Assembly: GCA_026387155.1 (NCBI GenBank)
Contig: JAPLMF010000026.1
Coordinates: forward strand, 1-43,115
Direction: 5' to 3'
Source of the DNA: Candidatus Omnitrophota bacterium
GTDB taxonomy: Bacteria > Omnitrophota > Gorgyraeia > 2-01-FULL-45-10
Length of the DNA: 43,115 nucleotides
Within the stretch, counting starts at the first letter, position 1; every line of letters begins with the position of its first letter. Shown here in pieces: positions 1 to 30,462 of this stretch. The notes under the pieces were generated by a model that was not told the origin of the DNA, did no database searches, and worked only from the letters and a program-made list of their open reading frames with translations. The position numbers and the translations under genes are program-made.

Positions 1-104
1 TCTTTTGTCATCTGGACATCCGTCTCCAGAAGGTCGGCGCCTAATTCTAAAGCTCTATTAATATCGGCCACAGATCTTACCTGATGAGCTGCAAGCGCGG
101 GCCC
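1..104 (-). other. Start of a PLC-like/GDPD/SMaseD-like phosphodiesterase (TIM-barrel) domain, cut by the window edge
   Basis: The last 35 residues read PALAAHQVRSVADINRALELGADLLETDVQMTK. The pattern H-x-V...(A/L)-x-x-G-A-D-x-L-E-T-D-V matches the N-terminal catalytic His/Glu/Asp strand-helix-strand of GDPD and sphingomyelinase-D type enzymes as I remember them. Only a fragment is visible. Confidence 0.3.
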
Positions 105-5636: not shown

Positions 5637-5640
5637 ATGT

Positions 5641-6558
5641 TCAGCAAACAGATATGATCAAAGCAGCCCCTATCACGAACTGGTATCTATCCCTGATCGG
5701 TATCCTTGAAGCGAGGGAGTCGAGTATATTCTCGTATTCGGATACTGCTCCTATGCGGGCGGCGCGTTCTTTTATACCGGTCTTATATTCTCCTGGTTTT
5801 AGATTTTCCAGGAACTCAATATTCATGCAATATACGGCGGCGTTCAAGTCATACCCGACCCTGTGGGCAAAAAGCTCCGAGGCCAAATGCGGCGCGCCGC
5901 CATCATCTTCTTTTATTTCGCCCACCGCATCTCTCTCAAGCAGGCCGATATATTTCTCCGAACCGGGCATCTCGTATTCGCTTGTATCTCTTCCGGCTCT
6001 ATCTTTGACCTTAACCCCGAAAAGCCCTATTACAGTGCCACCTGACTGCCTAGTTCTATCCTCCTCAGAGAGATCGAACGTAGGAGTCTGCTTATACCTT
6101 AAAAATCTGTATTTCGGCCCCATGACCTTCATAAGATTAAACTTCGCATCCCTGTGCACAGTTATCCTATATCGCATTCTCTTGGTCTTATTCAATCCGG
6201 AATTGTTAAGGCCGTATCTTTTAATGATCCGATAATCCTTACCATCGAGCTCTGTTTTGCCAAGGAACGCTTTTATTTCAGCTGCGGGTGATACTAAGAA
6301 GTATCTTCCTTTGGCGTCAGGATCTTCAGCTATCTTTATCCCTGTATCTTTTAATAACTTGAAAGCACCCTCGCTCAAACCATCTTCTGCTAAACTTCCT
6401 TTTATAGCCACTAGAGACCTGGCGGCCTCTCTCTTCAGGAACTCAACTTCTATCCTTGCTATATCTATTGAGGCAAATAGGTCATTATATGCTTTTGTAT
6501 CCTTTACTATATCCTCTCCGCTGGGGAACTCTACCCTACCCGGAATATTATTAAGCAC
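5641..6558 (-). CDS. Hypothetical protein, giant-locus segment 5
   Basis: A 305-aa ORF with a GTG start. Its frame is already open from about 6650 and codes plausibly there (LIKLIDDARAAPPGSEYADALQRLNN...). It ends in a hydrophobic stretch (FVIGAALIISVC) that overlaps the open frame of the next ORF. I recognise no family. Confidence 0.6.
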   Translation of the reverse strand: MLNNIPGRVEFPSGEDIVKDTKAYNDLFASIDIARIEVEFLKREAARSLVAIKGSLAEDGLSEGAFKLLKDTGIKIAEDPDAKGRYFLVSPAAEIKAFLGKTELDGKDYRIIKRYGLNNSGLNKTKRMRYRITVHRDAKFNLMKVMGPKYRFLRYKQTPTFDLSEEDRTRQSGGTVIGLFGVKVKDRAGRDTSEYEMPGSEKYIGLLERDAVGEIKEDDGGAPHLASELFAHRVGYDLNAAVYCMNIEFLENLKPGEYKTGIKERAARIGAVSEYENILDSLASRIPIRDRYQFVIGAALIISVC

Positions 6559-6629
6559 GTTGTTAAGCCTTTGGAGGGCGTCGGCGTATTCGCTTCCGGG
6601 CGGTGCGGCCCTGGCATCGTCTATTAATT

Positions 6630-9416
6630 TTATAAGCCCTGGCCATTAAGGACGACCTCCATGGCCCTGTACTGAAGCTCAGCTTCGGAAAGCTCATCTT
6701 TAGTGGCTATACCGGATCTGAGTACTTTTAAAAATAACTTTCTTACTAAGGGCGCTACGATCCACACGATTATTGCTATGGTGAGCACAACGTATAGCCA
6801 GTTTTCGTACAGATATCCTCTAAGAAGTTGCGGAGAATTATCAAGTATCCCGCGGACCGATAACAGAATATCGGTTGCGTGCCATATTCCTATCACCTTT
6901 GTAATAGCTCTTATCCTTTGAGCTGCGATGCTCTTCTTCTTCGGAAGCCTGGAGTTCAATATTTCTGTGGCTTTAGCCACAACCCCGCCGCCGAGTAGCC
7001 TGAATTTTGAAGCGAATGAGGCGCTCATCTCCGTCAGTCTTAATCTTACAGCAGGTTTACCGCGCATGGAATCAAGCGGCGTTGACTTACTATAATCGGC
7101 TTTTCCTTTTGCAGCATCATACGGAGCGCTGAAGAATTCATCTGAACCGTTTCTACCTGTTCCGATCGAGCGTATATACTGGATCTTGAGATTGCCGGAA
7201 TACTGAAATTCTTTTATCGCCGTTCCACCCATAGATTCCAGCTGAGCAGAAACGGGCCCCACAGTATTCGTTGCTGGGTCACGCGGAGCGCTGAAAAATT
7301 CATCTGCCCCTCCTTTTCCCGTGCCTATGGAACGAATATATCTGGTCTGTCCGTCCGCAGAATCCGTAAACTGAGGCTTTGGAGGCGTTTTTTTGACAGG
7401 TACTTTTGTAATTGGTACTTTTGTTTTGCGATAGGCGTCGCGCCCGCTTCTAAACATCCATAAAATAGCCATCATGAAAGCTACTACCATGTAAGTAGCC
7501 CAAAGGGTCGACCTGTTCTTAAGCGCTTCATCAAATGGTGACATCCCGTGCTGTATCTTCTTGGCCCCTACCAGTATTGTATATGCCTGATGGTTGGCTT
7601 CAGCTTTCGTGATCTGACCGCCATTGACCTGTTCGGCGAGATCCTGTAAAAGGTAGAGAGCCCTGTTAACGCTTTCGCTGTTTATACTCTTCAGAGAATA
7701 TTGTTCTTTTAGCACAGCTAACGCCTGTTTTACATACAGCAGTCCAGCTACATCCTTATATGTGCCCTCCATATTTTTGGAATATATTTTATCGGCCCAG
7801 TGCATAAGGACCTCTGCTGTTTTGACATCTATCTTCTCTACCGAATTAATATTAAGAGTTTTTGCTACGAAGAGATACAATTTATCAGTACCGATAAGCG
7901 TATTTGTTATGCTATCCGGATCGAGCGCGCCGGCTTTATTCCACCTTCCGGAATCGTCAAGAGTCCTGAATATAGCGTTTATAAGAGATACTCGCGGGAT
8001 CACTCTTAATCTTTCAGGGATCGTGACTTTGTTCATGGCGGCATTAATGTCGCCATAAGCCTTCCCATTAGGATCGAGCTCCTTATAAAGCTTAGTGGAA
8101 ACGGCCGATGCTGCTTGCGTTTTCGATTCCGGCGCATTCTGGACTTTTTCCACAGTTATATCGTTTGGTTCAGTCGCTGCATTTCTTATCGAAATACCAG
8201 TTATCCGAACATCGCCCGCAAATTTTTGCTTTGAAACGTTCTTTTCGCTGAATACGAGGCCAACGTGCGTGATCCTAGTGGGGTCATACATCCTGAACGG
8301 TAATTTCTCATCTCCGAATCTTACTCTGACCGTTATTAGATTATCCGGGTTACCAGTCCTTTTTATAGGGTCGTCTATTATGAAGACAAATCCGTTTGAA
8401 TATGGTGTGGCTTCGGTCGACCGGGATACGTCTATCCACCTGCCTTTTTCTATCGACTCGGCGCTGTATAAGGAAGATATGGCTGCCGCCTCAAGTCCTA
8501 TATGGCCACCCGGTCGCATATGCATGAAGCTATCCGGAAGCCTTACCGTAAATATAAGCTCCTTACCCCTCAGATCCGCGGCACCGTTTTCCACTACACT
8601 ATCCTGCAATAAACCTTCTACTGGTATATATATGTAGGCCTGCCCCGCGCGCTGGTCAGACATTATTTTTCCTACCTCACCAAGACTTATCTCTCCGTCC
8701 ACAAGCGCAAGACTTGGAATATTGTGTGTTCTTATTTTATCGATCGCCCCTGGCTTTACTGACAAAAGCTCCTTTTCGGGATATTTGACAAAATCACTTA
8801 TATCAATACCATATCGTCTAGCCGTATTCTCCAACGAGGCAAAAAGATTATAGTAAACGGATCTTGCCGTTTCCGAGCTAAAATCTGATTTATATTTTAT
8901 CCTTAAAGCTCTATCCAAACTGCTAAATTTGATCTTTATGATATCCGGCAGCGATGCCTTATGCCTAGCCCAATCGTTAATTATTTCCTGCTCTGACATT
9001 CCGAGGCGGTCTGTTCTAAATTTGACGGTCGGCTCCGAACTGCTCAATTCCCTTATGTCCATCTGGATCCAACCATATATGTTATCCGGTTCTCCACTAT
9101 CGATAAATTCCTCTACAAGATCTTGAGCAATTTGAACGTAAGTAAGATCAGACCATAGTTGTCCGAGGCCGGTTGTAACGAATATGGAACCCTTATTATT
9201 TGAGGTACTGGTTTTAGTCACGGTAATAACACCATTTGCATCCGTCTCTCTTCTTTCGGCCTTCTCTATACTTCCATCGGATTTTATAACCCTTACGACC
9301 CTCCCGTAAGGATGTGCAAGAGGTCTATTATTCTTATCTACGGTGACGAGGGCTGTTTCATCGTACTCGTAGGCCTTATTGTCCTTATCCGCAGGATCGG
9401 AAGTAGCGTATGTCAC
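6630..9416 (-). CDS. Giant-locus segment 4. It holds the YD/RHS-like repeat continuation, a beta-rich central region, and two TM helices flanking a duplicated 54-aa motif.
   Basis: A 928-aa ORF. The listed start (GTG, MTYATSD...) lies inside a repeat unit. The same frame continues upstream as PQYTGETRTEAGKAELDKAGNLFATTAYYPSGNLKSVTYATSD. TM helices are LWATYMVVAFMMAILWMF (about 7455-7510) and WLYVVLTIAIIVWIVAPLV (about 6745-6805). Confidence 0.75.
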   Translation of the reverse strand: MTYATSDPADKDNKAYEYDETALVTVDKNNRPLAHPYGRVVRVIKSDGSIEKAERRETDANGVITVTKTSTSNNKGSIFVTTGLGQLWSDLTYVQIAQDLVEEFIDSGEPDNIYGWIQMDIRELSSSEPTVKFRTDRLGMSEQEIINDWARHKASLPDIIKIKFSSLDRALRIKYKSDFSSETARSVYYNLFASLENTARRYGIDISDFVKYPEKELLSVKPGAIDKIRTHNIPSLALVDGEISLGEVGKIMSDQRAGQAYIYIPVEGLLQDSVVENGAADLRGKELIFTVRLPDSFMHMRPGGHIGLEAAAISSLYSAESIEKGRWIDVSRSTEATPYSNGFVFIIDDPIKRTGNPDNLITVRVRFGDEKLPFRMYDPTRITHVGLVFSEKNVSKQKFAGDVRITGISIRNAATEPNDITVEKVQNAPESKTQAASAVSTKLYKELDPNGKAYGDINAAMNKVTIPERLRVIPRVSLINAIFRTLDDSGRWNKAGALDPDSITNTLIGTDKLYLFVAKTLNINSVEKIDVKTAEVLMHWADKIYSKNMEGTYKDVAGLLYVKQALAVLKEQYSLKSINSESVNRALYLLQDLAEQVNGGQITKAEANHQAYTILVGAKKIQHGMSPFDEALKNRSTLWATYMVVAFMMAILWMFRSGRDAYRKTKVPITKVPVKKTPPKPQFTDSADGQTRYIRSIGTGKGGADEFFSAPRDPATNTVGPVSAQLESMGGTAIKEFQYSGNLKIQYIRSIGTGRNGSDEFFSAPYDAAKGKADYSKSTPLDSMRGKPAVRLRLTEMSASFASKFRLLGGGVVAKATEILNSRLPKKKSIAAQRIRAITKVIGIWHATDILLSVRGILDNSPQLLRGYLYENWLYVVLTIAIIVWIVAPLVRKLFLKVLRSGIATKDELSEAELQYRAMEVVLNGQGL

Positions 9417-9855
9417 GCTCTTTAAGTTGCCTGAAGGATAGTAGGCTGTCGTTGCGAAGAGATTGCCTGCCTTATCCAGCTCTGCCTTGCCGGCCTCTGT
9501 CCTGGTCTCGCCTGTATATTGAGGAGCTATTGTCCAGAGAATCGGAAGTAGCGTATGTCACGCTCTTTAAGTTGCCTGAAGGATAGTAGGCTGTCGTTGC
9601 GAAGAGATTGCCTGCCTTATCCAGCTCTGCCTTGCCGGCCTCTGTCCTGGTCTCGCCTGTATATTGAGGAACCTCGGAGTTCCCGTTGACCTTAATCGTC
9701 TTTGTGACTCGGCCGTACGGGTGCGCCAGGGGCTTGCCGTCTTTTACATCTACAGTAATGAGGGCTGTTTCATCGTACTCATATCCCTTGTTGCTATTGT
9801 CCAGAGAATCGGAAGTAGCGTATGTCACGCTCTTTAAGTTGCCTGAAGGATAGTA
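9396..9855 (-). repeat. Coding tandem repeat with a 267-nt (89-aa) YD/RHS-like module, partly collapsed
   Basis: 9396-9525 and 9541-9670 are identical (130 nt, offset 145). 9526-9588 and 9793-9855 are identical (63 nt, offset 267). One unit encodes YYPSGNLKSVTYATSDSLDNSNKGYEYDETALITVDVKDGKPLAHPYGRVTKTIKVNGNSEVPQYTGETRTEAGKAELDKAGNLFATTA. A more diverged third unit follows at about 9130-9395. Confidence 0.9.
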
Positions 9856-9909
9856 TGGAAGCTTCATTCTTGGTATCGCCGCGGTAGGCTGTGATCTCGA
9901 TATCCCCAT
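9472..9909 (-). pseudogene. Out-of-frame fragment of the YD-like repeat region, not an independent gene
   Basis: This 145-aa ORF consists only of repeat units (YYPSGNLKSVTYATSD appears twice). It goes out of frame at the 9525/9526 junction, where a 122-nt sub-block of the unit is missing. Its N-terminal 18 residues are the alternative frame of the preceding ORF. Confidence 0.7.
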
Positions 9910-12865
9910 TCCCGTAATCTACGATCTTCTTGTTATTCCGGCGGTCCATCGTGATGGTGGTGCCGTCGGCGTAATATATAGTTTTCCACATGGCATTCCC
10001 GGCGACCGTCTCATATTCGATCAGCACTGCTCCACCGTGCTTTATGGCAAACTCATTTCCGGCGGGCTTCTCCGGAATAGTACACTCTTTAGCGATAAGC
10101 CCCTCGAGCGCCTTACCGCTTGAATACATATATCCTTTCGCCGTCTCTTTTCCGGCTGCATTGCGCGATAAGAATGGTGTGCGCCAAACTCCTTTAAGCT
10201 CTATCTTTTTTCCGTTCGGCAGAGTAATGGTATAGTTGCCCATTACCGCTCGGTTCAAGGTCGTATCATCAACCAAAACGCCGGAACTATTGTAAGTCTT
10301 CTCCCGTATTGTACCGTTGGCGGCGGGCTTGCCGCGGACGGTCCGCGTTTCGGAAAGCCTAGCCTTCATATTGGCCCTGACATCGGCAAGACAATTTTCT
10401 ACAGCTGCCAGGGCTTCAGGCCCAAGCTGCCCGGCGCTGATACGTGTCCTGACCTGGATAAGCATTTCCTGTAGTAAGGCCTCGGAGCGAGACCATTCGC
10501 CTTTTTCATTATAGCCTTGTATGATGGCTATCCAGTCTTCAGCAGGGGCGCCCTTTACGCTCTCCGCGGCCTCTCCAGCAGCGGCAATGAGTGGAGTAAT
10601 GAATATGCCACCAAGAAGATTTTTCAATTTTTCAAGGCCTTCGTTCAGTTTTTCTGGAGCGACCGGCGGCGGAACAAAATTCCTGGACTCTATTAAGTTC
10701 CAATTGTTATTCGGCAGATCCTGGCTGTCAAATATGAGCAGCTTGTATTCGCCCTTCATCACGCCTTCTCTGGAGGTCTCCTTAAAAGTCCCTAATACCG
10801 TCCTGTACATATCTGTGCCGACTGGCAGATCCTTAAGCGAATTGACTTTAGCGACTATCTTATCGAGGGCTTCGAGCTCCGTCTTAACCGCTTCCGCGGT
10901 TAGCGGTGTCTTGGCCGCGACGGCTTTCGCCCTCGCTCTATCAACGGCTACTGTAACGAATTTTAGCGTCTTATCTATGGGCCTGGCTTCCTTATCGCGC
11001 CTCTCGATATAATTGGGTATCCACTTTTCCAGATAGCTTGCTATGGCTTTTCTCTCGGCATCATTAAATCTCGTATCGGAAGATATGCCCTCGCTCATAT
11101 TCTTGAGGAACTTAAGGTATTTATCTTCAGGTTCTATGCCCGGTATATTGCCGGCGGTCCGCACCAACGGCGCTACGGTTTCACCAAACAGCTTATCCAC
11201 CTCTGCAGCCTCCATATCGGAAAGATGCAGGACCGCATATGTCCAAGGACCTGCCAGCGTATTCCTGTCCATGACATTGGACGGATTTGTGGAAAAAGTC
11301 CTTCCGAGCATCTTCTCGACAAAACGTCTGGCCCACGCCATACCGTTGTCCCAGAAGTTCTTATCTTTATTTATCAGACCATATTCGTCTACCAGGGATT
11401 CCACGCCTTTAAGGTACCCCATATCGCCTCTTTTATAAGCCGCAAGTATTGCGGAGGCGGCACTGGAGGCGAGTTTGCCGGCCTGAGCCACGGAGGCCCA
11501 GCCATTTCTCACCATGTATTCGTTGTAAGCCTCAAGGAAATCGAGGAAACCTAATGACGAAGCGTAGCCGGGATCGTTCTGAGAATAGCCGAACCACATG
11601 CGGCCGAAAAGCTCCGGCACCTTCTTGCCCTTCATCTCACCGGCTCTCTTCGTCATCCGGTCTATGTGGCTTATCAGATCCTTTGCGTTGTAGCCCCTGA
11701 TATTCTTCTGACTGAGATATACGAAGAACCCTATGCGCCCGTCTCTTGTAGCCGGCGCCTTGACCTTCATTGCGCTATATAGCTTTCGGGCAGAGGAGTC
11801 TATCCTCTGTTTCTCTTTTTCGCTGAATCGTGCAGCCTGGATGGACCAGCCTACAAGGCTTACATCCTTAGCCTTAAGCTCCTCGTTAGATACCGGCCTG
11901 GCAACTGCGGCTTCCGGCACTGCTGCATTTTCCGATACCGGTCTTTCCGATAACTTGCCGAGTTTCTCTTGTATATTTACGCCGATCGCTTTCAGGGTAA
12001 GGAGCCCTGTAAATAGCATGGTGTTCAGATCTTTTTTTCCCTGTATACTGCTTACCCTGGCTAAGTATCTCTGTTGGGCCGCGCGCAATACTTGAAGGCC
12101 TCCTGTCTCGTTCCTCCCCCACCGATCATCATAAAGTTCTTTATAGGATGAGTTCCAATTTTTGTATGAAGTATTCGAATCCTGTACGGCTTTCGCAGCT
12201 GCGGGTATACCATCCCCGAATAACTCACCGATCCAGTTCGCGCGGGTGAGCTTTTTACCTTCAGCCTCAAGCTTCTTCTGGGCCGCGCGCATCCTGGAGC
12301 CCATCCTGTCGAATTTCATACTCGAATTCCAACCTATTCCGAGGCTGGCGAAGAAGTTTCCGTCAATTTCGCGGTTCGAAAACGCCTCGCCGAATTTGCC
12401 GTTAGAAAGTAGCTGTCCTAGAAGGCTGAGCTTGAAATCGTCCAGCTTCTCCGTCTTCTCATCTATGAGAGATTCCATGACCTCCGGCCACTTTTCCTTT
12501 GCCTCTTTGGCGGCCTGGGATATAACGGCTTCCCAGAGCATAGCGGCCTGTTCCGGATGTTCCTGAAAAAGTAAGTCGAAATCTATCTTCTCTTCAGGAT
12601 TTTCGGGCGATACGGATTTCGATAGTTTTATATACCCCTGCTTTATAAGGCGGCTTAAACCGGCGCATCCCGACCTTTCCAACTTTTTTATATATAATTC
12701 TATCGCCTTTATGCTCTCTTTTACCTTTTCTATTTCGTCGCGGCACTCTTTTATATCGTTCTTCGCTGAAGGATTCCCGGTGAGCAGTTTATTGGCGACC
12801 AATCCGGGCATTATGCGGTTTAAATCATCAAGATAATCGTTCGCGGCGGTAAGCTCCTGCCTCAA
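9794..12865 (-). CDS. Giant-locus segment 3. A mostly helical protein of unknown function with YD-like repeats at its C-terminus. The coding frame actually extends upstream to 13140 and beyond.
   Basis: A 1,023-aa ORF from a TTG start. The same frame is open for 101 further sense codons upstream (to 13168) with no ATG, GTG or TTG. That stretch reads as normal protein (YGKDGWLTAAEANRTTLQNTKTDLEEKIARYQGISDRRLFKVFDWNVYWAVSF...). The C-terminus (TIYYADGTTITMDRRNNKKIVDYGNGDIEITAYRGDTKNEAS) leads into the repeat array. Confidence 0.75.
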   Translation of the reverse strand: MRQELTAANDYLDDLNRIMPGLVANKLLTGNPSAKNDIKECRDEIEKVKESIKAIELYIKKLERSGCAGLSRLIKQGYIKLSKSVSPENPEEKIDFDLLFQEHPEQAAMLWEAVISQAAKEAKEKWPEVMESLIDEKTEKLDDFKLSLLGQLLSNGKFGEAFSNREIDGNFFASLGIGWNSSMKFDRMGSRMRAAQKKLEAEGKKLTRANWIGELFGDGIPAAAKAVQDSNTSYKNWNSSYKELYDDRWGRNETGGLQVLRAAQQRYLARVSSIQGKKDLNTMLFTGLLTLKAIGVNIQEKLGKLSERPVSENAAVPEAAVARPVSNEELKAKDVSLVGWSIQAARFSEKEKQRIDSSARKLYSAMKVKAPATRDGRIGFFVYLSQKNIRGYNAKDLISHIDRMTKRAGEMKGKKVPELFGRMWFGYSQNDPGYASSLGFLDFLEAYNEYMVRNGWASVAQAGKLASSAASAILAAYKRGDMGYLKGVESLVDEYGLINKDKNFWDNGMAWARRFVEKMLGRTFSTNPSNVMDRNTLAGPWTYAVLHLSDMEAAEVDKLFGETVAPLVRTAGNIPGIEPEDKYLKFLKNMSEGISSDTRFNDAERKAIASYLEKWIPNYIERRDKEARPIDKTLKFVTVAVDRARAKAVAAKTPLTAEAVKTELEALDKIVAKVNSLKDLPVGTDMYRTVLGTFKETSREGVMKGEYKLLIFDSQDLPNNNWNLIESRNFVPPPVAPEKLNEGLEKLKNLLGGIFITPLIAAAGEAAESVKGAPAEDWIAIIQGYNEKGEWSRSEALLQEMLIQVRTRISAGQLGPEALAAVENCLADVRANMKARLSETRTVRGKPAANGTIREKTYNSSGVLVDDTTLNRAVMGNYTITLPNGKKIELKGVWRTPFLSRNAAGKETAKGYMYSSGKALEGLIAKECTIPEKPAGNEFAIKHGGAVLIEYETVAGNAMWKTIYYADGTTITMDRRNNKKIVDYGNGDIEITAYRGDTKNEASILSFRQLKERDIRYFRFSGQ

Positions 12866-13140
12866 ACTAACTAAGCTATGGAATTCAGATATCGCGCCGG
12901 CGAGCTTGGAAATGTCTCCGTATTTCCTGGCGGCTTTAGACTTGTCTGCCTCCAGACCCTTCTTTATTATCTCCGGTATGTCGAAAGAGACGGCCCAATA
13001 AACGTTCCAGTCAAAAACTTTAAATAGGCGTCTGTCACTTATACCTTGATACCTGGCTATCTTCTCTTCAAGGTCCGTTTTTGTATTCTGAAGCGTCGTT
13101 CTATTAGCTTCTGCCGCGGTAAGCCAGCCATCTTTACCAT

Positions 13141-13154
13141 AGAACTTAGAACTT
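13141..13154 (-). repeat. Perfect 7-nt tandem duplication (AGAACTT x2 on plus, AAGTTCT x2 on the coding strand) that creates the stop of the 2,701-aa ORF
   Basis: The coding strand reads ...TTG TCC AAG TTC TAA GTT CTA TGG. With one copy removed it reads ...TTG TCC AAG TTC TAT GGT AAA GAT GGC TGG..., which is exactly the frame of ORF 9794..12865. Confidence 0.9.
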
Positions 13155-16100
13155 GGACAATGTGTCGTTCATATTTTTAGACTCGTCCCCAAGCCTTGCT
13201 ACCTCGGCGCCCTGTTTTCCAATCTCCGCGTTTTGTGTTGATAGGTCCGCTATATTTGCGTCGAGTGAAGCGGAATCATTAGCCATCGCTTGGCCATCTA
13301 CAATTACTCCTCCCGTATCGGAGTCGAAGATCCAATAGTTAAATTGGTCCGAAAGTCTATTTGTAAGAGAAGCGATATTCGCGCGGTCTTGCGCGGCTTG
13401 AGCGTTCGCCTGTGCCATGTATGCATTGGCATTGGCTACATACCCGGGTATCGCCCCGATAGCAGCCTTTGTCCTATCGTAATCGGAGTGGAGCTGGGCA
13501 AGATCGGCGGCATTTATATTTATATACACCTCAGTATCCGAAAGAGCGCGTTTTGCATCATCGAGCGTCTTTGATACGATGCTCGGGAAATCTTTGGAGA
13601 TGCTCCCTCCTATATCCACAAACTGAAATACCGCTGCGGCTCTGGACAAAAATTCATTGAAAGCGGCACGCCTGTCCGCCATCGCTTTCCCCCGGCTGGT
13701 TATTTCATCGGCAAGACTCCTGTAGTCTTTAGCCCTATTCGTTACTGCTATCTTACCGGAATCGACTTTACCGGGCGCGCCCGGTCCGTCCACCCTGCAA
13801 AGCTCGACCGTCCTATAGACAAGATTCTCTTCCTCCGCCCGAACCTTGTCCTTTGCGCCGTCAAGCGCTATCTTAAGATCATCTGTTATATTCGGATTGG
13901 CGTCCTCCATGTCCCCGGCCTCAAGCTTGCCGCTGGCTACGTTCTCCAGGCGATGATCAAGATCTCTCTGGACGCCCGCCATTTTATCAACTGCGAAAGA
14001 GAATTCCTTCTGCGCATATTTGTACTTGTTTCTGGCATCCGTCACCGCTTCTTCCGACCTTCTATCCCACGTATTCAGACTTAAAGTGGCGGTATCTACA
14101 ACGCCTCCGGCTTCCGATACCTCCGCAACCCTGCCGATGATGCTTTTTATTATATTGTCCCAACCTAAACTCACCGTGCTAAACGGTTCACTGACAGTCT
14201 CTGTGGTCACCGTGCCGGACGTGGTCCTGACTTCTTCCTGAAGTGCCCGGCCCGTTGCCGGATTTATCACAGATTGATTCGCCGAATATGTCGTACCGCC
14301 TACGGTTTTAGCGGTTGTCGGCAGCCAGTCCTTTGTAACTTTTTGGGTCTTATCCGCGGTCGTATAGGAGCCGGATACATTTACCGCAACATCTCCCCAT
14401 TTAATCATCGATCGGGCTAGTTCCGCGCGGTCCTTTAATATCTGAAGCCTGGTTTTTTCCGAATCGTGCGGGTCTGGATTCGCCCCTATATATTTGGGAT
14501 TTGCCAGTATAACCGTCGGATTAAAACTCTCGTCCTTTATGCCGTCCAGCCTCTGGACCAATATCGTCTCGAGCTCGCTCTTTACGTCACTAAGCCTCTT
14601 CTTCTGGTTAGTAAGCTCCTCTTCTGCTTTGGCAAGTTCCTGTCCTGCGCCTATAACTGCCGGACTGCGCACCGCATCCGGCTCTTTTGACAGATCTCTG
14701 CCGGCGGCTCGCGTCTCCACTTCGACGGCGCGGGCCATCTTGGCTTTAACATCGAGTACCTTGGCCTCGGCATTGGTAACCGCTTTCTTGGCGGAAATAT
14801 ATCCGGCGGACTTATTCAGGATGTCGTAAACCAGATCTCGCTTATCCTTATCCGCGGCAGCTCGGTTTGCCTCCGCAGACTTCCTGTAGAATTTGCCGGG
14901 TATGCCGATCGCGCGCCCGACCCGGATCGCCGGGGCCATACTGACCAATGTTGTCAACATGTTTTTACGCGGCTCGCTCCACTTGTCAAATCCTACCTGA
15001 TCGGTAAACTCTTTGCTATTAAGCGATCCTTTTATATTTATCGATCTGTCATCCATCCCTATGATGAACCGCGAGCAGAAAGTATCGTAGGCTTTAGCCA
15101 TCTCATCGTCGAACTGCGCTTCCCGTAATAAAGCTTTTATGTTAGGATTATTTTCTATCGCGGCATCTATGGCTTCTTCGATAGTAATATTGCCCAGACT
15201 CGGTCTGGTTTTCTCGGCAGGCTTCTCCTCCTTGCCGAACTCTACCTTAAGGCGCGCGTCTATGTTATTCAATAGTTCTTCGGCATCCATAAGTTTTGCC
15301 CTTGCGTAAAGGATCTCGATGGAGACCTTGCCGTAGTCGAGCGCGTTCCACGACATGCCCTGTTTTTGCTTAAGATCGTAATTATGTCTCTCCAACTCGA
15401 ACGAGGCGAGGCTCTCCTTGAGCTTCTGTATAAGGTCAGCAACGTCGGTCCTTGCCGTCTTAAGGCTATTCCGATCCACCCCGGCCTGATTCAGGGCATA
15501 TTCCGCAAATATCTCCTTGGTCCTCTTAAGGACGCTTTCATCTACTATCGAAAGATCTTTTGCTCCTCTCCACTGGACTTTTAGTGTAATGAAGTGGGTC
15601 CAGAACGCCGTATTCGAAAGAGCCAGCCCTGTGGGCGCTTCGGTCCCGATGCCCAATGTCATGCTTTTCGGAGTGACCGTCTTCCAAAAACCCATATTCT
15701 CCTTCTGTATATCATATCTCACCTTCGCCCATTGCTCGGCGGCTTTCGCTTTGGCCAGATCGGCGGGTATACCGGCATCCACTCCATACTCCTCGCAAGT
15801 ACGCAAGACGCTGTCTATTTTTATATTCTTCGTAAAATCGAACGGTTTCCTGGTATCCTCAAGACCCAGTAACGGCCTGATCTCGGATTCTATACTCGAT
15901 AGGCGCACTTTTGCGTGAGATATTTGGGATTTAAGACCATCTATGTAACCTTCTATGCCGGCCTTCTCACCTGGCTCGAGATCGGGCCTTGAAGCTACCA
16001 CCTCAAGTTCCTTTATCATATTCTCCGTCAGTTTTATCGCCTCGGTTATCGAATAACCTTCATTCCACAGGCCGTAAAGCTTCATGATGCCGGAGACTAT

Positions 16101-19100
16101 CTTGTCGTATCTGTCGGCTTCACTATTGGGCGCGTTCGCCTCGAGCTCCTTGAGTAGGTCTTTAACTTCAGTATTGAATAGCTCTACCGATATCTGAGCC
16201 CCAAGTTTGTAGGTTTCCTTGGTAAAATCACTATTCCATGTTCCGGTGATGCCTATCCAGGCCCCGAGCCGCCCGTACCAGTGCTGTCTCCCGTATTGTT
16301 TCAGCCACGGGGTGGCTATATCATTAAGCATCTTAAGGAGCGACGCCTTGCTGGCATCGGATGTCATGAATAGGTCTATTGCGGCTTCAGATATGCTCTT
16401 ATCGCCTCTCGCTACGGATCCCAGGACCGCCAGCCTCTTCGCGTCGAGATCAATGCCCGCCTCTTTCAGTATAGTAGCCACCTTCTCCGGCCGTCTGCCA
16501 TGAGCAGCTATCAAGCCGTGAGTGTACATCGTAGCTTTTATATAATCCTTCTTGGCTATATACTTCTTTATGATTTTAAAAGCGAACTTTTCGGCGTTGA
16601 TTCGTTCATCTGAATCGGCTGCTTTGGCTATAACCGGCAATATGGTTTCAAGCGCCGCAGCATAATTCTCATCGTCGTATAGTGTCTTCGCCCGCGTTAA
16701 GGCATCGGCCATTGAAAATCCGGAAACATCAAGCGCAGATACTTTTATATCATCTATTGTGAACATGGCGCGGGTGAGATTTTCGGTATCACGGCTCTTT
16801 GCATATTCGAGCGCACCCTTAAGCGCTTTAATATCGTCAGGATTCACCGTACCGTTAAGTCTGTCGATACTACTTGCCACAAACCTGTAGGCCCTGCCCC
16901 TGAATAGCGCATCGTTCATATTACCGGTGGTTTCGGCGTGTATCACCGGCAAGAGATTCTTTACTACGCCGAGGTAGTCACCTTTATGGGCAAGTTCCTT
17001 TGCGCCGTCATAAGTTTTCCTGCCGTCCCTTGAATTATATAAAGCCGGATCGAGAGAGACTTTTATGAGCGCCAGACGCTTACTGGCAGACCTCTCTTCG
17101 GCGGCCTTTTCGGCTGCGGCCTTCTGCTCTTCAGCGGCTTTCTTTTCTGCGACAGCTTTTTCGGCTGCGGCTTTCTGCTCGGCAGCCTTGCGCGTTTCCT
17201 CGGCTGCTATTTCGGCTGCGGCTTTCTTTTCTGCAGCGATCCTCTTTCTTTCAACGGCTTTCTTCTTTGCGGCAGCTTTCTTTTCTGCAAGGGCTTTCTT
17301 ATCTGCGATGGCTTTCTGCTCGGCAGCTTTACGTGCTTCCTCTGCGGCCTTCTGCGCTTCAAGTGTTACAGAAGCGGTAACGGACGGAGCAGCGGGGGGA
17401 ACTGCAGGTGCCTGTACTACCGGCGGAACCGTTAATGCGGGAGCCATGACTGTGGATGGCTGTGCGACAGAAGGTGCCGGAGCGGCCGCTAATGGAGCAG
17501 CCGGTTTCTCTTCCTTAGGAGGTGGAGGCGTCCCGCCGCCAGGCCCCGGACCGGGTCCGGCTAAGCCGGGTCCGATTCCGGCGCCGACAGGCTTTTCCAC
17601 CTTAGCGGCTTCTTCGGCAGCCTTCTTCTCGGCTGCGGCCTTCTGTTCTTCAGCGGCTTTCTTTTCTGCATCCTTGCGCGCTTTAGCTTCCGTATTTATG
17701 GTAGCAAGCAACTGGCCGGGTAATTTTTGAGCAACTATCAATGCCCTGTCAACCTGTTCGGGGGTTTTGGCTGCCTTTATGAGTCCGCTTGCTATATCTC
17801 TGGTATTTATATTCTCAAGATCCGATGGAGGCGCGCGGCTCTCGGGCGTTACTGCTTCCGGAGCCTTTGGCACCGCAGATCGTTTTATTGTTATACCGAA
17901 TATCTTATCGAGATTCGCGATGAGCTGATCCTCGGTCTGTGCCTTATACATGCTCTGCTCAGGTGCTACGACACGATTGACTTCGGCGCCCATGCCTATC
18001 GATGGAACCGCACCGGCTATTATAGCGGAAGCCATTAGGCCTTTTACCATTTTCTTTGATTCGGTCGCGGCAAGACGTTCGAACACTCCCGTAGGCTTCT
18101 CGCCTCGCGCCATACGAGCCATTACACTCTTGCGATAGGCTAATAATTTATTGCCGAGGATGGCTATCAAGGTCACTGAGGAAACGGTTAACGTTAGCGC
18201 CGCTATTGAAAATCCTCCAACCATCATGTATATACCGCCTACGACGGCACCGGCCGCGCCGAATCCTACTATCATGCCTCTGAGATTAGGCGCGGTGAGT
18301 TCAAATATCTCGCGGATGAACTGCGCGCGCGTCGTGGTCTTTCCAAGGGCTTCGCTTTCTACCGCGGCAAATCTTCTGGCCATGTAAGGCGCGGCTATCA
18401 CATATAATACGGTCGTCGCAAGAACTATCATTGAGCCCATCGTTGTGAAAGCGGTGAATGCTCCGCCGACTGAACCCGCGCCCTTAGCTACGATAAGAAG
18501 GACTGTGAGGAGTAGCGGCATCGCGGCTACACCGGCTATCTTCGCTTTTATCGCGGGACGCGAGCGCTCAAGGGCCTTTCCTTCCGGCGTTTGGGCGTAC
18601 ATCCTGGAAAACGCTGTCCTTGCCCACATGCCGGCAAGCGCTATCGCGCCCACGCCTGCTGCGAATCCGGCAGTACTGCCGGAAAGGAGGGCTAAAAGGA
18701 TCGTTCCTGTCACCGCAGCCAGACTGAAACCGAGGTAACTCATTGCGCGCTGGAAACCGGTCCTCTGGACCGTCACAGCGAGAGATATCTTTTTGTGGAA
18801 TATGATCGAGATGGCCGCTCCCGCTAAGATCCCTATCGCCGCCATAGCAAGCGCCGCAATGACCACAACCGGCGCGGCCTGCGGAAACATTATCGTAGAT
18901 GCGAGCGCAAGGAGTGATCCTATCGGCATCGTGCCGCTCAATAGCTGCAGTATGGATACAGGGATCGCTCCCACAGCCCCCGCCAACTCGCGCGAACTGG
19001 CTACGCCGCGCAGCGCAAGAGCGAGATTCTGCTGTCCTCTATAAACTTGGGAGAACTTCTTTACTTTCACTAAATAGATAGCGAGTCCTATTATAACGAG

Positions 19101-21251
19101 CGCGACTGTGACGGCTATATAGACGGAAGGCATATTGCTGAATAGTTCTGTCACGGGTGAAAGCCCTTCCGGACTGGATATGATACCCCTTATAAAGCCT
19201 ATGCTTTTAAATGCGTACGTGAACGAGCTTATCATGGCGGCAATTATAACACCGCCTATCCCCCATCCTGCTGCCTTGCGCCATATACCGGCACGGGCAA
19301 CACGGCTGGCGGCCCATTCCAAACCTTTAAGATCCAGATACGAAGCTACAGTGTCATTTACGGATTGTATTGCGGAGTCACGAGTTTTAGCGGATATGTC
19401 CCTTAGCTTGACATCCGGCGGCGTCTGGATAGCTTCACCTTTTACACCGGCCTCCTGTATCTCCTGACCGATATCGTACTGCGCCCGGTTCATGGTGCTT
19501 AAATATCTAGAGAACGCATTATCGAGAAGCCCGAGGATAGTAAGCTTAAACTCTCCGGCCATCTCCGCAGGGACCCTGTCGAAGGCAGCCCTTACTCCCG
19601 GCAATCCGGCTGCGTCGAGAGAGTCGAGATCTCCTTCCGTAACGAGCTTCCTTAAATTCTTAAAATATTCTTTCGTCTCCTGCATATCATTATTGAATGG
19701 CTCGGACTGTTGAAACTGTTGTATCTTCTGGGTCATTATCGCTTTTCGCAGCGCCCCTATAAGGTTCACCACTTCGGCAGGCTCCGCGCCATCCTTAGCT
19801 TCGATGGGCTCACCGGCGGCAACAAACTTATCATTTATAGCATCAAACACATCCCTGGCGCCCGGCAGCTCTCCATGTTCGCTGAATATCTTGTCTTCTA
19901 TGGACCAGTAGGCCCTCCAGGCTCCCGTATCTCCCGGACGACGGACGAGACGGCGCCTGAACTGTTTGTCGGTAGCGGCAAGTTCATCTATATATGTGGA
20001 ATAAGATATGTTCTGTCCGCTGCGAGCCACCAATTCATCGAGCTTTACGTCCACACCTCGCGCGCCGCGGTTTGTCACTATGGTAATGGCGCCCGATTTT
20101 CCGGCCGTCTTTTCGAGAGTATCTATATCGGTCTCCGAAAATGCGTCGAACTTCATTATCGGGCCGGTTATCCCCTGGCTTCTCAGCTGGGTTTCCACTT
20201 TATCGGATTCGCCTTCGCGGACCTTTATATATATGGCGGGTTTTTCAGGCTTCCCCATCTCTGTAACGACGTCTTTATAGAAACCTTCCCACTTACCCGC
20301 CTCGGTACGGTACATCTTTACCGTTTCGATGAGTGAATTTCCTGTGGACGCGACCGGATGCACGACTTCCTTCCCGTGAACCGCCAGAATGAAGTCATCA
20401 TCCATAGTGCCGCTGGCTCCGGCATAGTCTATGACCCTGCCGCTTCGTTTCAGGAAGTCCATAAGCATCATCTGGTTGCTCGTATCCTGTTCCGTGCGGA
20501 CCTCGACGCCTCCTGCAGCATGCTTAGCTTCTATGGCCGAATGCAGGCCGTTGGACCAGCGCCTGCCGGGCTGTTTTACGCCGTTATCTATGATAACTAT
20601 TTCATTGCCCACTATAGCGTAGTCTTCCACGCCGTAACAGATCTCCGCGGTAAGGGCCTGTTCTATGAGACGCCCCCATTTACCGGGTTCAAGATTAAAT
20701 AGCGCTGTGGCGCGCGACCCGAGCCTTGCAGATATTTCCCTTATACCGGCGTAGGTTAGTTTTATACGTTTTTTCTCTTGCTCGGATATATTGATATAAC
20801 CTCTACTAATCCCGGCCCCATTATCATAAAGCTCCATCGCAAGTTCCCTGGCCGCGATATACTGATCGCGAAGCTGGGCGCCGCCTTCACGCTCATTACC
20901 GGATATGATGAACGGCGTCATAAGCTGATAAACGAGAGGATCGTCCGCCTCGTCGAATAACACAAAATATTTCCTGGAGGACAGGGCCATATCGGCTTCG
21001 TCGGTAGCGAACTCTTCCTGCTCGTAACGGTGGACGAATGTCGTGACCGTGCCGTATATGATATCGCAGGTCCTATACACGTCTTCCTGAGTCTTCTTCT
21101 CCAACTCGCTGGTGGTTGGATTATACACATAACCCACGTGCTCACCGTTCTCTTCACCCACAAAACCTACGGTGCGGCCAAACTTGCTTTCAACCTGTCC
21201 GGCAGCTCTAGCGTCCCTCTTTGCCAGGTCGTCGCTCTTCGTTGCAACCAA
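13146..21251 (-). CDS. Giant-locus segment 2. In order: SecA-like ATPase motor, 10-12 TM helices, A/E/K and Pro-rich spacer, TPR-like helical region, TolC/OEP-like module, coiled coils.
   Basis: A 2,701-aa ORF whose listed start is TTG. Its frame is open upstream to 21287 and there encodes ...AGAEGKGVLVATKSDDLAKRDA, which continues the SecA P-loop region begun in the previous ORF. The domain-level features below give the motifs. Confidence 0.85.
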   Translation of the reverse strand: MVATKSDDLAKRDARAAGQVESKFGRTVGFVGEENGEHVGYVYNPTTSELEKKTQEDVYRTCDIIYGTVTTFVHRYEQEEFATDEADMALSSRKYFVLFDEADDPLVYQLMTPFIISGNEREGGAQLRDQYIAARELAMELYDNGAGISRGYINISEQEKKRIKLTYAGIREISARLGSRATALFNLEPGKWGRLIEQALTAEICYGVEDYAIVGNEIVIIDNGVKQPGRRWSNGLHSAIEAKHAAGGVEVRTEQDTSNQMMLMDFLKRSGRVIDYAGASGTMDDDFILAVHGKEVVHPVASTGNSLIETVKMYRTEAGKWEGFYKDVVTEMGKPEKPAIYIKVREGESDKVETQLRSQGITGPIMKFDAFSETDIDTLEKTAGKSGAITIVTNRGARGVDVKLDELVARSGQNISYSTYIDELAATDKQFRRRLVRRPGDTGAWRAYWSIEDKIFSEHGELPGARDVFDAINDKFVAAGEPIEAKDGAEPAEVVNLIGALRKAIMTQKIQQFQQSEPFNNDMQETKEYFKNLRKLVTEGDLDSLDAAGLPGVRAAFDRVPAEMAGEFKLTILGLLDNAFSRYLSTMNRAQYDIGQEIQEAGVKGEAIQTPPDVKLRDISAKTRDSAIQSVNDTVASYLDLKGLEWAASRVARAGIWRKAAGWGIGGVIIAAMISSFTYAFKSIGFIRGIISSPEGLSPVTELFSNMPSVYIAVTVALVIIGLAIYLVKVKKFSQVYRGQQNLALALRGVASSRELAGAVGAIPVSILQLLSGTMPIGSLLALASTIMFPQAAPVVVIAALAMAAIGILAGAAISIIFHKKISLAVTVQRTGFQRAMSYLGFSLAAVTGTILLALLSGSTAGFAAGVGAIALAGMWARTAFSRMYAQTPEGKALERSRPAIKAKIAGVAAMPLLLTVLLIVAKGAGSVGGAFTAFTTMGSMIVLATTVLYVIAAPYMARRFAAVESEALGKTTTRAQFIREIFELTAPNLRGMIVGFGAAGAVVGGIYMMVGGFSIAALTLTVSSVTLIAILGNKLLAYRKSVMARMARGEKPTGVFERLAATESKKMVKGLMASAIIAGAVPSIGMGAEVNRVVAPEQSMYKAQTEDQLIANLDKIFGITIKRSAVPKAPEAVTPESRAPPSDLENINTRDIASGLIKAAKTPEQVDRALIVAQKLPGQLLATINTEAKARKDAEKKAAEEQKAAAEKKAAEEAAKVEKPVGAGIGPGLAGPGPGPGGGTPPPPKEEKPAAPLAAAPAPSVAQPSTVMAPALTVPPVVQAPAVPPAAPSVTASVTLEAQKAAEEARKAAEQKAIADKKALAEKKAAAKKKAVERKRIAAEKKAAAEIAAEETRKAAEQKAAAEKAVAEKKAAEEQKAAAEKAAEERSASKRLALIKVSLDPALYNSRDGRKTYDGAKELAHKGDYLGVVKNLLPVIHAETTGNMNDALFRGRAYRFVASSIDRLNGTVNPDDIKALKGALEYAKSRDTENLTRAMFTIDDIKVSALDVSGFSMADALTRAKTLYDDENYAAALETILPVIAKAADSDERINAEKFAFKIIKKYIAKKDYIKATMYTHGLIAAHGRRPEKVATILKEAGIDLDAKRLAVLGSVARGDKSISEAAIDLFMTSDASKASLLKMLNDIATPWLKQYGRQHWYGRLGAWIGITGTWNSDFTKETYKLGAQISVELFNTEVKDLLKELEANAPNSEADRYDKIVSGIMKLYGLWNEGYSITEAIKLTENMIKELEVVASRPDLEPGEKAGIEGYIDGLKSQISHAKVRLSSIESEIRPLLGLEDTRKPFDFTKNIKIDSVLRTCEEYGVDAGIPADLAKAKAAEQWAKVRYDIQKENMGFWKTVTPKSMTLGIGTEAPTGLALSNTAFWTHFITLKVQWRGAKDLSIVDESVLKRTKEIFAEYALNQAGVDRNSLKTARTDVADLIQKLKESLASFELERHNYDLKQKQGMSWNALDYGKVSIEILYARAKLMDAEELLNNIDARLKVEFGKEEKPAEKTRPSLGNITIEEAIDAAIENNPNIKALLREAQFDDEMAKAYDTFCSRFIIGMDDRSINIKGSLNSKEFTDQVGFDKWSEPRKNMLTTLVSMAPAIRVGRAIGIPGKFYRKSAEANRAAADKDKRDLVYDILNKSAGYISAKKAVTNAEAKVLDVKAKMARAVEVETRAAGRDLSKEPDAVRSPAVIGAGQELAKAEEELTNQKKRLSDVKSELETILVQRLDGIKDESFNPTVILANPKYIGANPDPHDSEKTRLQILKDRAELARSMIKWGDVAVNVSGSYTTADKTQKVTKDWLPTTAKTVGGTTYSANQSVINPATGRALQEEVRTTSGTVTTETVSEPFSTVSLGWDNIIKSIIGRVAEVSEAGGVVDTATLSLNTWDRRSEEAVTDARNKYKYAQKEFSFAVDKMAGVQRDLDHRLENVASGKLEAGDMEDANPNITDDLKIALDGAKDKVRAEEENLVYRTVELCRVDGPGAPGKVDSGKIAVTNRAKDYRSLADEITSRGKAMADRRAAFNEFLSRAAAVFQFVDIGGSISKDFPSIVSKTLDDAKRALSDTEVYININAADLAQLHSDYDRTKAAIGAIPGYVANANAYMAQANAQAAQDRANIASLTNRLSDQFNYWIFDSDTGGVIVDGQAMANDSASLDANIADLSTQNAEIGKQGAEVARLGDESKNMNDTLSKF
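13900..15190 (-). other. TolC/outer-membrane-efflux-protein (OEP)-like module inside the giant ORF
   Basis: GNITIEEAIDAAIENNPNIKALLREAQFDDEMAKA (15121-15190) matches the hallmark OEP N-terminal signature (L-t/s-L-x-E-A-I-x-x-A-L-x-N-N-P-x-L). A second-half-like element follows: RLQILKDRAELARSMIKWGDVAVNVSGSYTT. S/T-rich beta-like stretches lie between long helices. Compare ILSIDDCVKIAAANNIQALVAKK in the bona fide TolC-like gene at 34907..36838. Confidence 0.4.
17060..17720 (-). repeat. Low-complexity coding region with A/E/K helical repeats flanking a Pro/Gly-rich core (TolA domain II / TonB-linker-like)
   Basis: The protein reads ...KARKDAEKKAAEEQKAAAEKKAAEEAAKVEKPVGAGIGPGLAGPGPGPGGGTPPPPKEEKPAAPLAAAPAPS...AVPPAAPS...EAQKAAEEARKAAEQKAIADKKALAEKKAAAKKKAVERKRIAAEKKAAAEIAAEETRKAAEQKAAAEKAVAEKKAAEEQKAAAEKAAEE. 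A 41-nt direct repeat with one mismatch occurs at 17110-17150 and 17629-17669. Confidence 0.85.
17990..19300 (-). other. Polytopic membrane domain (about 10-12 Ala/Gly-rich TM helices) directly after the SecA-like motor
   Basis: Successive hydrophobic 18-25-aa segments include WGIGGVIIAAMISSFTYAF, VYIAVTVALVIIGLAIYLV, APVVVIAALAMAAIGILAGAAISIIF, AMSYLGFSLAAVTGTILLALLSG, IAGVAAMPLLLTVLLIVA, MIVGFGAAGAVVGGIYMMVGGF and SIAALTLTVSSVTLIAILG. They are separated by short basic loops. I see no similarity to SecY. Confidence 0.7.
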
Positions 21252-21298
21252 GACGCCCTTGCCTTCGGCACCCGCAAAGTCAGGGTCTTACCAAATCC
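19450..21298 (-). other. Divergent SecA-type ATPase motor (NBD1, PPXD-like insert, NBD2, start of the helical scaffold), interrupted by a frame break at 21264-21287
   Basis: Each motif is given against E. coli SecA as I remember it:
- MLMGFGKTL (21281-21298, previous ORF frame) vs MRTGEGKTL.
- GKGVLVATKSDDLAKRDA vs GKGVHVVTVNDYLAQRDA.
- YFVLFDEADDPLVYQLMTPFIISG (DEAD at about 20940-20957) vs [23 protein letters not shown].
- DYAIVGNEIVIIDNGVKQPGRRWSNGLHSAIEAK vs [36 protein letters not shown].
- AITIVTNRGARGVDVKL vs AVTIATNMAGRGTDIVL.
- DKQFRRRLVRRPGDTGAWRAYWSIEDKIF vs [31 protein letters not shown].
- LLDNAFSRYLSTMNRAQYDI vs LDSLWKEHLAAMDYLRQGI. Confidence 0.8.
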
Positions 21299-30091: not shown

Positions 30092-30204
30092 ATTGATCCC
30101 GGGCTCAAAACTTAAGACGACGGTCGATTCGCCTTCTCATCTAGCGCCGCGAAGTCCATATTGATGCCGGGCTCGAAGCTCAATACAACCGTCGATTCTC
30201 CTTC
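30069..30204 (-). repeat. Imperfect 68-nt tandem duplication inside the RND gene
   Basis: Copy 30069-30136 and copy 30137-30204 differ at 13 of 68 positions. Twelve of the 13 mismatches sit at positions that are multiples of 3 within the repeat, which is the wobble phase. Both copies encode (K/E)GESTVVLSFEPGINM(D/E)FAALD. Confidence 0.9.
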
Positions 30205-30462
30205 CTTAGATATCGAGAGCATCTCCTCCAGATGGCTTACCGTACCGACTGCCTCTTCGACGGGTTTCGATACGAGCGCCTCTACTTCCGTAGGGGGGAT
30301 GCCGCCGCGTACCTCAATTATTATACTCACCTCGCCGAACGCTATGTTTGGATACAGCTCTACCGGAAGCTGCGTCAGCGCCAAAAGCCCCGCCAACACC
30401 AGCGCCGAGTAGATCATGAGCATGGTGATCGGTTTTTGTATGGAGAACGAAGGAAGGCTCAT
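30112..30462 (-). CDS. RND efflux permease, N-terminal 116-aa fragment of the same split gene
   Basis: MSLPSFSIQKPITMLMIYSALVLAGLLALTQLPVELYPNIAFGEVSIIIEVRGGIPPTEVEALVSKPVEEAV is the canonical RND N-terminus (TM1 plus the start of PN1). It parallels residues 1-100 of ORF 30474..33653 and ends out of frame after the duplication. Confidence 0.85.
   Translation of the reverse strand: MSLPSFSIQKPITMLMIYSALVLAGLLALTQLPVELYPNIAFGEVSIIIEVRGGIPPTEVEALVSKPVEEAVGTVSHLEEMLSISKEGESTVVLSFEPGINMDFAALDEKANRPSS

Follow-up and report, generated by a model that had tools for sequence, protein, structure and literature searches.

The stop codon that ends a 2,701-amino-acid open reading frame (ORF) on the minus strand of the window, the whole 43,115-nucleotide stretch of DNA analysed here, is created by a perfect tandem duplication of the heptamer AAGTTCT. 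We propose that this duplication is a local assembly error, made at a contig join or in polishing, which has cut a giant gene into pieces; from the analysis below, we put the probability of this reading at about 0.65. It is favoured by at least four more small join-type lesions in the same contig, one of them absent from independent assemblies, by the composite structure of one of these lesions (junction D), and by the lack of nonsense substitutions and of codon-bias decay in about 27 kb. The stop is probably absent from the organism and, as biology, carries little weight.

The stop codon spans two copies of a heptamer

13141..13154, minus strand: junction B, perfect tandem duplication of AAGTTCT (two copies), with a +1 frame break
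13146..13148, minus strand: TAA stop codon straddling the boundary between the copies, read from the sequence

The plus strand at 13141-13154 reads AGAACTTAGAACTT, and the minus strand accordingly AAGTTCT AAGTTCT, with copy 1 at 13154..13148 and copy 2 at 13147..13141; repeat analysis assigns a copy number of 2.1. On the coding strand the codons are TTG TCC AAG TTC TAA GTT CTA TGG TAA AGA, and the stop takes its T from the end of copy 1 and its AA from the beginning of copy 2. The claim of an earlier note on this DNA, that the stop is manufactured by a perfect 7-nucleotide duplication, is thus borne out by the letters themselves. On removal of one AAGTTCT copy, a single uninterrupted frame of 3,816 codons results, extending from 21251 to 9794 and reading ...NMNDTLSKFYGKDGWLTAAEANRTT... 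across the junction.

Perfect 7-nucleotide tandem repeats occur in the window at the frequency found in shuffled sequence (3 observed versus 3.15 +/- 2.4), and the two other doublets, at 19935 and 31985, lie inside intact ORFs. The frame change is confined to a 20-nucleotide interval, 13149-13168, which the AAGTTCT repeat overlaps. A repeat would be expected at this interval with a chance of roughly 3 x 33/43115, about 0.002, and chance was rejected on this ground for the position of the repeat, not for the mere existence of a 7-mer doublet. The length of the insert, 7 = 3n+1, has the sign required for restoration of the frame, and the flanks of the doublet are unique in the window.

Coding continues across the duplication

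13146..21251 (frame open from 21287), minus strand: 2,701-amino-acid ORF, an internal fragment of the giant gene by domain and frame analysis
9794..13168, minus strand: downstream frame, open for 1,124 codons, with full coding signal but no start-type codon in codons 1-101

The two frames are deposited in nr as separate proteins, the downstream one as a 1,005-amino-acid protein starting at ATG 12811 (P0001) and the 2,701-amino-acid ORF as P0002; by cluster look-up, each is a singleton found on one NCBI contig only. Codon usage was scored as log-odds, with the window's long ORFs as the training set. Between 13190 and 13160, exactly at the repeat, this signal leaves the upstream frame for the downstream one, and it remains positive, at +5 to +14 per 30 codons, throughout the 101 start-less codons. 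Start-type codons (ATG, GTG or TTG) make up 4.6% of the codons of the giant gene, which gives a probability of about 0.009 for a run of 101 codons lacking them. The first such codon after 13168 is TTG 12865, as expected from the remark in the earlier note that the downstream extension has no start. A GAGG, GGAG or AGGA precedes the genuine starts of the window, whereas ATG 12811 and TTG 12865 have no Shine-Dalgarno (SD)-like motif before them. The 2,701-amino-acid ORF and the downstream frame belong to a single coding sequence, in which the downstream ORF lacks a start of its own. It also holds, as had been claimed, that deletion of one copy fuses the two. The nr proteins of 2,701 and 1,005 amino acids are most likely pieces of one Omnitrophota giant protein of ~9,000 amino acids or more.

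A chain of open frames with a divergent SecA-like motor

21167..26938, minus strand: N-terminal fragment of 1,923 amino acids with an ATG and a GAGG ribosome-binding site, ending with the SecA Walker-A motif GFGKTLTL
21170-26938, minus strand: open frame, 1,923 codons
13149-21287, minus strand: open frame, 2,713 codons
9797-13168, minus strand: open frame, 1,124 codons
9472-9909, minus strand: open frame, 145 codons
6633-9557, minus strand: open frame, 975 codons
5644-6645, minus strand: open frame, 334 codons
3-5657, minus strand: open frame running off the contig end, 1,885 codons

From 26938 to the contig end, the minus strand is filled with abutting or slightly overlapping open frames, 8,979 codons in all (26938..3), and the chain runs off the end of the contig. 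The coding signal passes from frame to frame at every junction. In-frame stops are absent from the ~9,000 codons (~27 kb) of chained frames except at the junctions, and the codon log-odds score is fully positive in every fragment, with undiminished codon bias; an intact gene therefore fits these data better than a decaying one. The 1,923-amino-acid, 2,701-amino-acid and 1,124-codon frames and those that follow are most likely one giant membrane-protein gene with a divergent SecA-like motor. The earlier note did not recognise that the 2,701-amino-acid ORF is a fragment of a larger, repeatedly broken gene of ~9,000 codons or more, and this gives the single stop another meaning. All genes of the window, which is a complete MAG contig from NCBI, lie on the minus strand, tRNA and rRNA genes were not found in it, and the contig ends inside the giant gene.

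The 2,701-amino-acid ORF opens partway through a SecA_DEAD domain; after this domain come SecA_PP_bind, P-loop_SecA and about eight hydrophobic segments, and the ORF also contains Ala/Glu/Lys-rich and Pro-rich low-complexity stretches. No Pfam match to the scaffold/wing domain SecA_SW (PF07516) was obtained in the frames of the giant gene. Across the chained frames, about 27 hydrophobic segments were counted with a crude predictor (Kyte-Doolittle 19-residue mean of 1.6 or more), and the chained protein has long low-complexity linkers and YYPSGNLK-type repeats. At 44% identity, P0003, a partial protein from Omnitrophota, is the closest homologue; canonical SecA proteins reach at most 29%. A further stretch, residues ~1090-1250 of the 1,923-amino-acid ORF (window ~23300-23750, minus strand), contains ...LEHESMGG...GAGTGLGQIQVW... 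and matches nearly the whole Phage_lysozyme2 profile below threshold (E = 0.0037; 17.9 bits versus a cut-off of 28.2). It may be a lysozyme- or transglycosylase-like module, a candidate assignment that agrees with the cell-wall-degrading role proposed for Omnitrophota giant proteins.

The neighbouring AcrB gene has its nearest relatives in Candidatus Omnitrophota MAGs (67-75% identity), and the N-terminal 560 or so amino acids of the giant gene recur downstream of the RND operon in three Omnitrophota loci (L014, L018 and L022). The syntenic homologues at L018 16656-24383 and L022 16420-22134 share only the N-terminal 550 or so amino acids. Of these two, one is a complete protein of 1,904 amino acids, and the gene that comes after it is unrelated; in the other, the frame stays open for at least 2,576 codons and contains no Pfam domain. 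Beyond the conserved N terminus, the sequence appears, from these comparisons, to be freely replaced between lineages.

An exhaustive phmmer search of 1.84 billion representative proteins returned no orthologue of the junction-B region other than the two ORFs of the window. Protein-pattern scans of GTDB genomes and JGI metagenomes did not match the junction region, nor did a DNA pattern allowing one or two AAGTTCT copies in the JGI metagenomes, and exact look-ups of the 2,701-, 1,023-, 1,005-, 1,923- and 305-amino-acid ORFs gave no record of an independent contig. A word-index protein search with the fused junction also found nothing and is uninformative, having missed the window's own nr proteins too. 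Equally uninformative was a single-sequence AlphaFold2 model of 270 residues across the fused junction, which consisted of helices only, with a pLDDT of 55.

Further frame breaks in the giant gene

21252..21287, minus strand: junction A, -1 frame break inside the SecA motor, from SecA structures and comparison with P0003
9793..9925, minus strand: junction C, +1 frame break, from repeat and frame analysis
9396..9670, minus strand: junction D, perfect 130-nucleotide repeat with a period of 145 and a +1 frame break (145 = 3n+1)

The giant gene is broken at least four times, and the contig holds at least five small join-type defects. Within the giant gene, the small structural lesions each sit at a frame hand-over. 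At junction A the window is short of 3n+1 nucleotides (about 6-17 codons) between GKTLTLRV and AEGKGV. The 2,701-amino-acid ORF starts at position 123 of the Pfam SecA_DEAD profile, and fusing the frames raises the SecA_DEAD match from 52.8 to 79.6 bits, covering profile positions 77-285. Alignment with Thermotoga SecA leaves a 6-residue gap exactly at the break, and the partial Omnitrophota homologue reads GFGKTLTLRVAGYLLTNNKDKTKNYTTAQGKGTLVAT where the window has GFGKTLTLRV and AEGKGVLVAT in two frames. By these sequence comparisons, the 1,923- and 2,701-amino-acid ORFs are the two halves of one predicted motor domain.

At junction C an extra base lies most likely immediately upstream of a 63-nucleotide repeat, B-C1, at 9855..9793. 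Junction D is composite. Its repeated unit A-B occupies 9670..9541 and again 9525..9396, with the 15-nucleotide element C1 in between, giving the anatomy A-B-C1|A-B-C2, in which 9526|9525 is a novel joint; B-C1 is a perfect 63-nucleotide copy of the head of the preceding 267-nucleotide protein repeat. No single duplication yields this arrangement, which looks like two sequence ends that halted at boundaries between repeats or variants and were then joined. The surrounding region, 9396-9925 on the minus strand, is a mis-threaded array of 267-nucleotide (89-amino-acid) YYPSGNLKSVTYATSD... repeats, in which the 130-nucleotide repeat has a period of 145 and the 63-nucleotide repeat a period of 267, and in which two +1 breaks fall at repeat edges.

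The coding signal is handed over twice more, at about 6640 and about 5650, positions that may be further breaks or true gene boundaries. The open frames there overlap by only 13-14 nucleotides (~6630-6645 and ~5641-5657, minus strand). At 6630-6640, three stops fall within four codons (TAA AAT TAA TAG), and the coding signal of the next frame sets in immediately, the first start codon of that frame lying 29 codons further on.

A join artefact in the neighbouring AcrB-like gene

30070..30137, minus strand: frame-breaking extra segment of 68 nucleotides in the second AcrB-like gene, from comparison with Logan contigs

One lesion of the contig could be compared with independent assemblies. The extra 68 nucleotides are a second-allele copy of the adjacent stretch 30138-30205 (allele 1), with which they are identical at 55/68 positions. 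Allele 2 runs on for 53 bases past the 68-nucleotide segment before it rejoins; over this length the alleles differ at 23/121 positions, with only two amino-acid changes. Logan contigs of two independent runs, L001 (ERR15302196) and L002 (ERR15302223), lack the segment at 30070-30137; elsewhere they agree with the window apart from 1 mismatch each, in 10,475 and 8,178 nucleotides, respectively (99.99% identity). Removal of the 68 nucleotides restores an AcrB-like ORF of 1,056 amino acids. Since two alleles of one segment in tandem are the product of an assembly and not of mutation, this lesion is a concatenated strain bubble, a join artefact, and a clean diagnostic example of such an error. 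The contig thus demonstrably holds join errors that appear as frame-breaking direct repeats.

Logan contigs cover only the RND-operon side of the window, not 13141-13154; those on that side come from eight runs (ERR15302166, -169, -175, -191, -196, -205, -223 and -224) of one ENA series. In all eight runs they differ from the window by 0-1 mismatch per 2-10 kb, and the population is almost clonal. Both alleles of the 30070-30205 stretch coexist in the sampled population.

Origin of the heptamer duplication

If the heptamer duplication is an assembly error, two sequence segments would have been butt-joined at 13141-13154 with an overlap of 7 nucleotides left untrimmed; this would insert 7 = 3n+1 bases and would happen to create TAA. 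We infer by analogy that the 7-nucleotide lesion has the same origin as the verified artefact of the contig. A variant was also considered, in which the heptamer would be the 7-bp footprint or target-site duplication of a transposon that was skipped in the assembly. Several points speak against an assembly error. De Bruijn assemblers normally leave no 7-nucleotide overlaps, and a perfect 7-nucleotide duplication in unique sequence is a classic spontaneous slippage mutation as well. Furthermore, the giant gene, with 4-6 lesions in 27 kb, is more densely affected than the remainder of the contig, with 1 in 16 kb, a difference that could reflect relaxed selection.

The duplication could instead be a real and recent 7-bp frameshift that is fixed or dominant in the population, with the protein truncated after ...LSKF, the downstream part untranslated and pseudogenisation at an early stage. 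Among spontaneous frameshifts, short tandem duplications within unique sequence form a common class. The perfect copies and unique flanks at junction B suit such an event, the several other disabling lesions of the giant gene are as in a decaying gene, and giant orphan genes may be dispensable. This account must nevertheless accommodate the 68-nucleotide segment, a lesion of the same class that the contig also contains and that is demonstrably artefactual, and junction D, which is beyond any single mutational event. Nonsense substitutions and eroded codon bias, which mark a decaying pseudogene besides its indels, were not found across the chained frames of about 9,000 codons, and in a population that is near-clonal over eight runs, four to six independent recent indels in one gene are unlikely. 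We regard a real frameshift as unlikely, but as the main rival of an assembly error. A real duplication would amount to no more than an ordinary, recent frameshift mutation of an orphan giant gene, and only population heterogeneity would add interest.

Readings that give the duplication a function fare worse. It is very improbable that the DNA itself contains the duplication, possibly along with the other breaks, and that its copy number varies within the population. If it did, a predatory Omnitrophota cell could uncouple the N-terminal module of SecA motor and transmembrane segments (about 4,600 amino acids) from the C-terminal 4,400 amino acids or more of its giant protein; alternatively, giant genes of this kind may be expressed through several recoding events. 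Taken singly, phase variation, with the AAGTTCT copy number toggling expression of those C-terminal residues of a surface- or predation-related giant protein, is scarcely credible. Large membrane and surface protein genes are typical targets of phase variation, and the unit length here is not a multiple of three; contingency loci, however, depend on tracts of many units, two-copy repeats not being hypermutable. At junction B there are only two copies and no slippage-prone tract, no comparable tract exists elsewhere in the giant gene, and the two other chance 7-mer doublets are silent in intact ORFs. Of the two possibilities weighed in the earlier note, a recent disruptive mutation or switch and a local artefact, the artefact is favoured by the other lesions of the contig, and the slipped-strand switch is not supported.

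Least probable, and hardly conceivable, is a programmed +1 ribosomal frameshift at UUC UAA G, by which the fused protein would be made from the sequence as written. An in-frame stop after a sense codon, continued in the +1 frame, is the layout of prfB. The site has no slippery CUU-type codon, though, and UUC cannot re-pair on UCU; no SD-like stimulator is present upstream, in ...GACACAUUGUCCAAG, and neither a stable RNA structure (z = +0.39) nor an Rfam match was found. The other breaks of the gene differ in direction (-1 at junction A, +1 at junctions C and D) and share no motif, and the 1.84 billion representatives held no orthologues to show conservation of the site.

Comparison with known systems

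The +1-frame continuation directly at a stop codon is shared with prfB-type frameshifting, from which junction B differs in having neither a slippery codon nor an upstream SD sequence. With the contingency loci of Neisseria and Haemophilus surface genes, which consist of pentamer or tetramer tracts, it has in common a unit length not divisible by three and a location in a large envelope-associated protein gene, but here the unit is present in two copies only, without a tract. A perfect short 3n+1 duplication, an immediate stop and an intact downstream frame are likewise what a spontaneous tandem-duplication frameshift in an early pseudogene would present; in contrast to such a case, the heptamer is accompanied by junction D and the 68-nucleotide allele tandem, and nonsense substitutions are absent. 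Strain-bubble concatenation or the butt-joining of contig ends provides a closer parallel. The 68-nucleotide lesion is exactly of this kind, allele 1 followed by allele 2, and the 7- and 145-nucleotide lesions are also direct repeats at a joint, although the copies of the heptamer are identical and very short and bear no allele signature that would point to the mechanism.

The chained protein matches the giant proteins described from Omnitrophota. West-Roberts et al. (2023; 10.1101/2023.11.21.568195) reported proteins of 30,000 amino acids or more, together with partial ones of 10,000 or more, and replichores in which the genes all lie on one strand, as in the window. A 2026 preprint describes Omnitrophota giant proteins as overwhelmingly sequence-unique and as truncated in fragmented MAGs, and this uniqueness agrees with the lack of a junction-B orthologue among the 1.84 billion representatives. 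Shared with the proteins of West-Roberts et al. are the Omnitrophota host, a very long and sequence-unique protein, a divergent SecA DEAD domain and preprotein-binding domain without scaffold/wing, and many transmembrane segments. The same authors found Omnitrophota giant genes divided into adjacent ORFs by local assembly errors; correction of one such error merged two ORFs into a protein of 74,983 amino acids (10.1101/2023.11.21.568195). That case has been corrected; the gene described here has at least four breaks and extends beyond the end of the contig. As this contig illustrates, join errors conceal giant genes and give rise to apparent pseudogenes. In both cases, adjacent large ORFs on the same strand merge once a small local error is removed.
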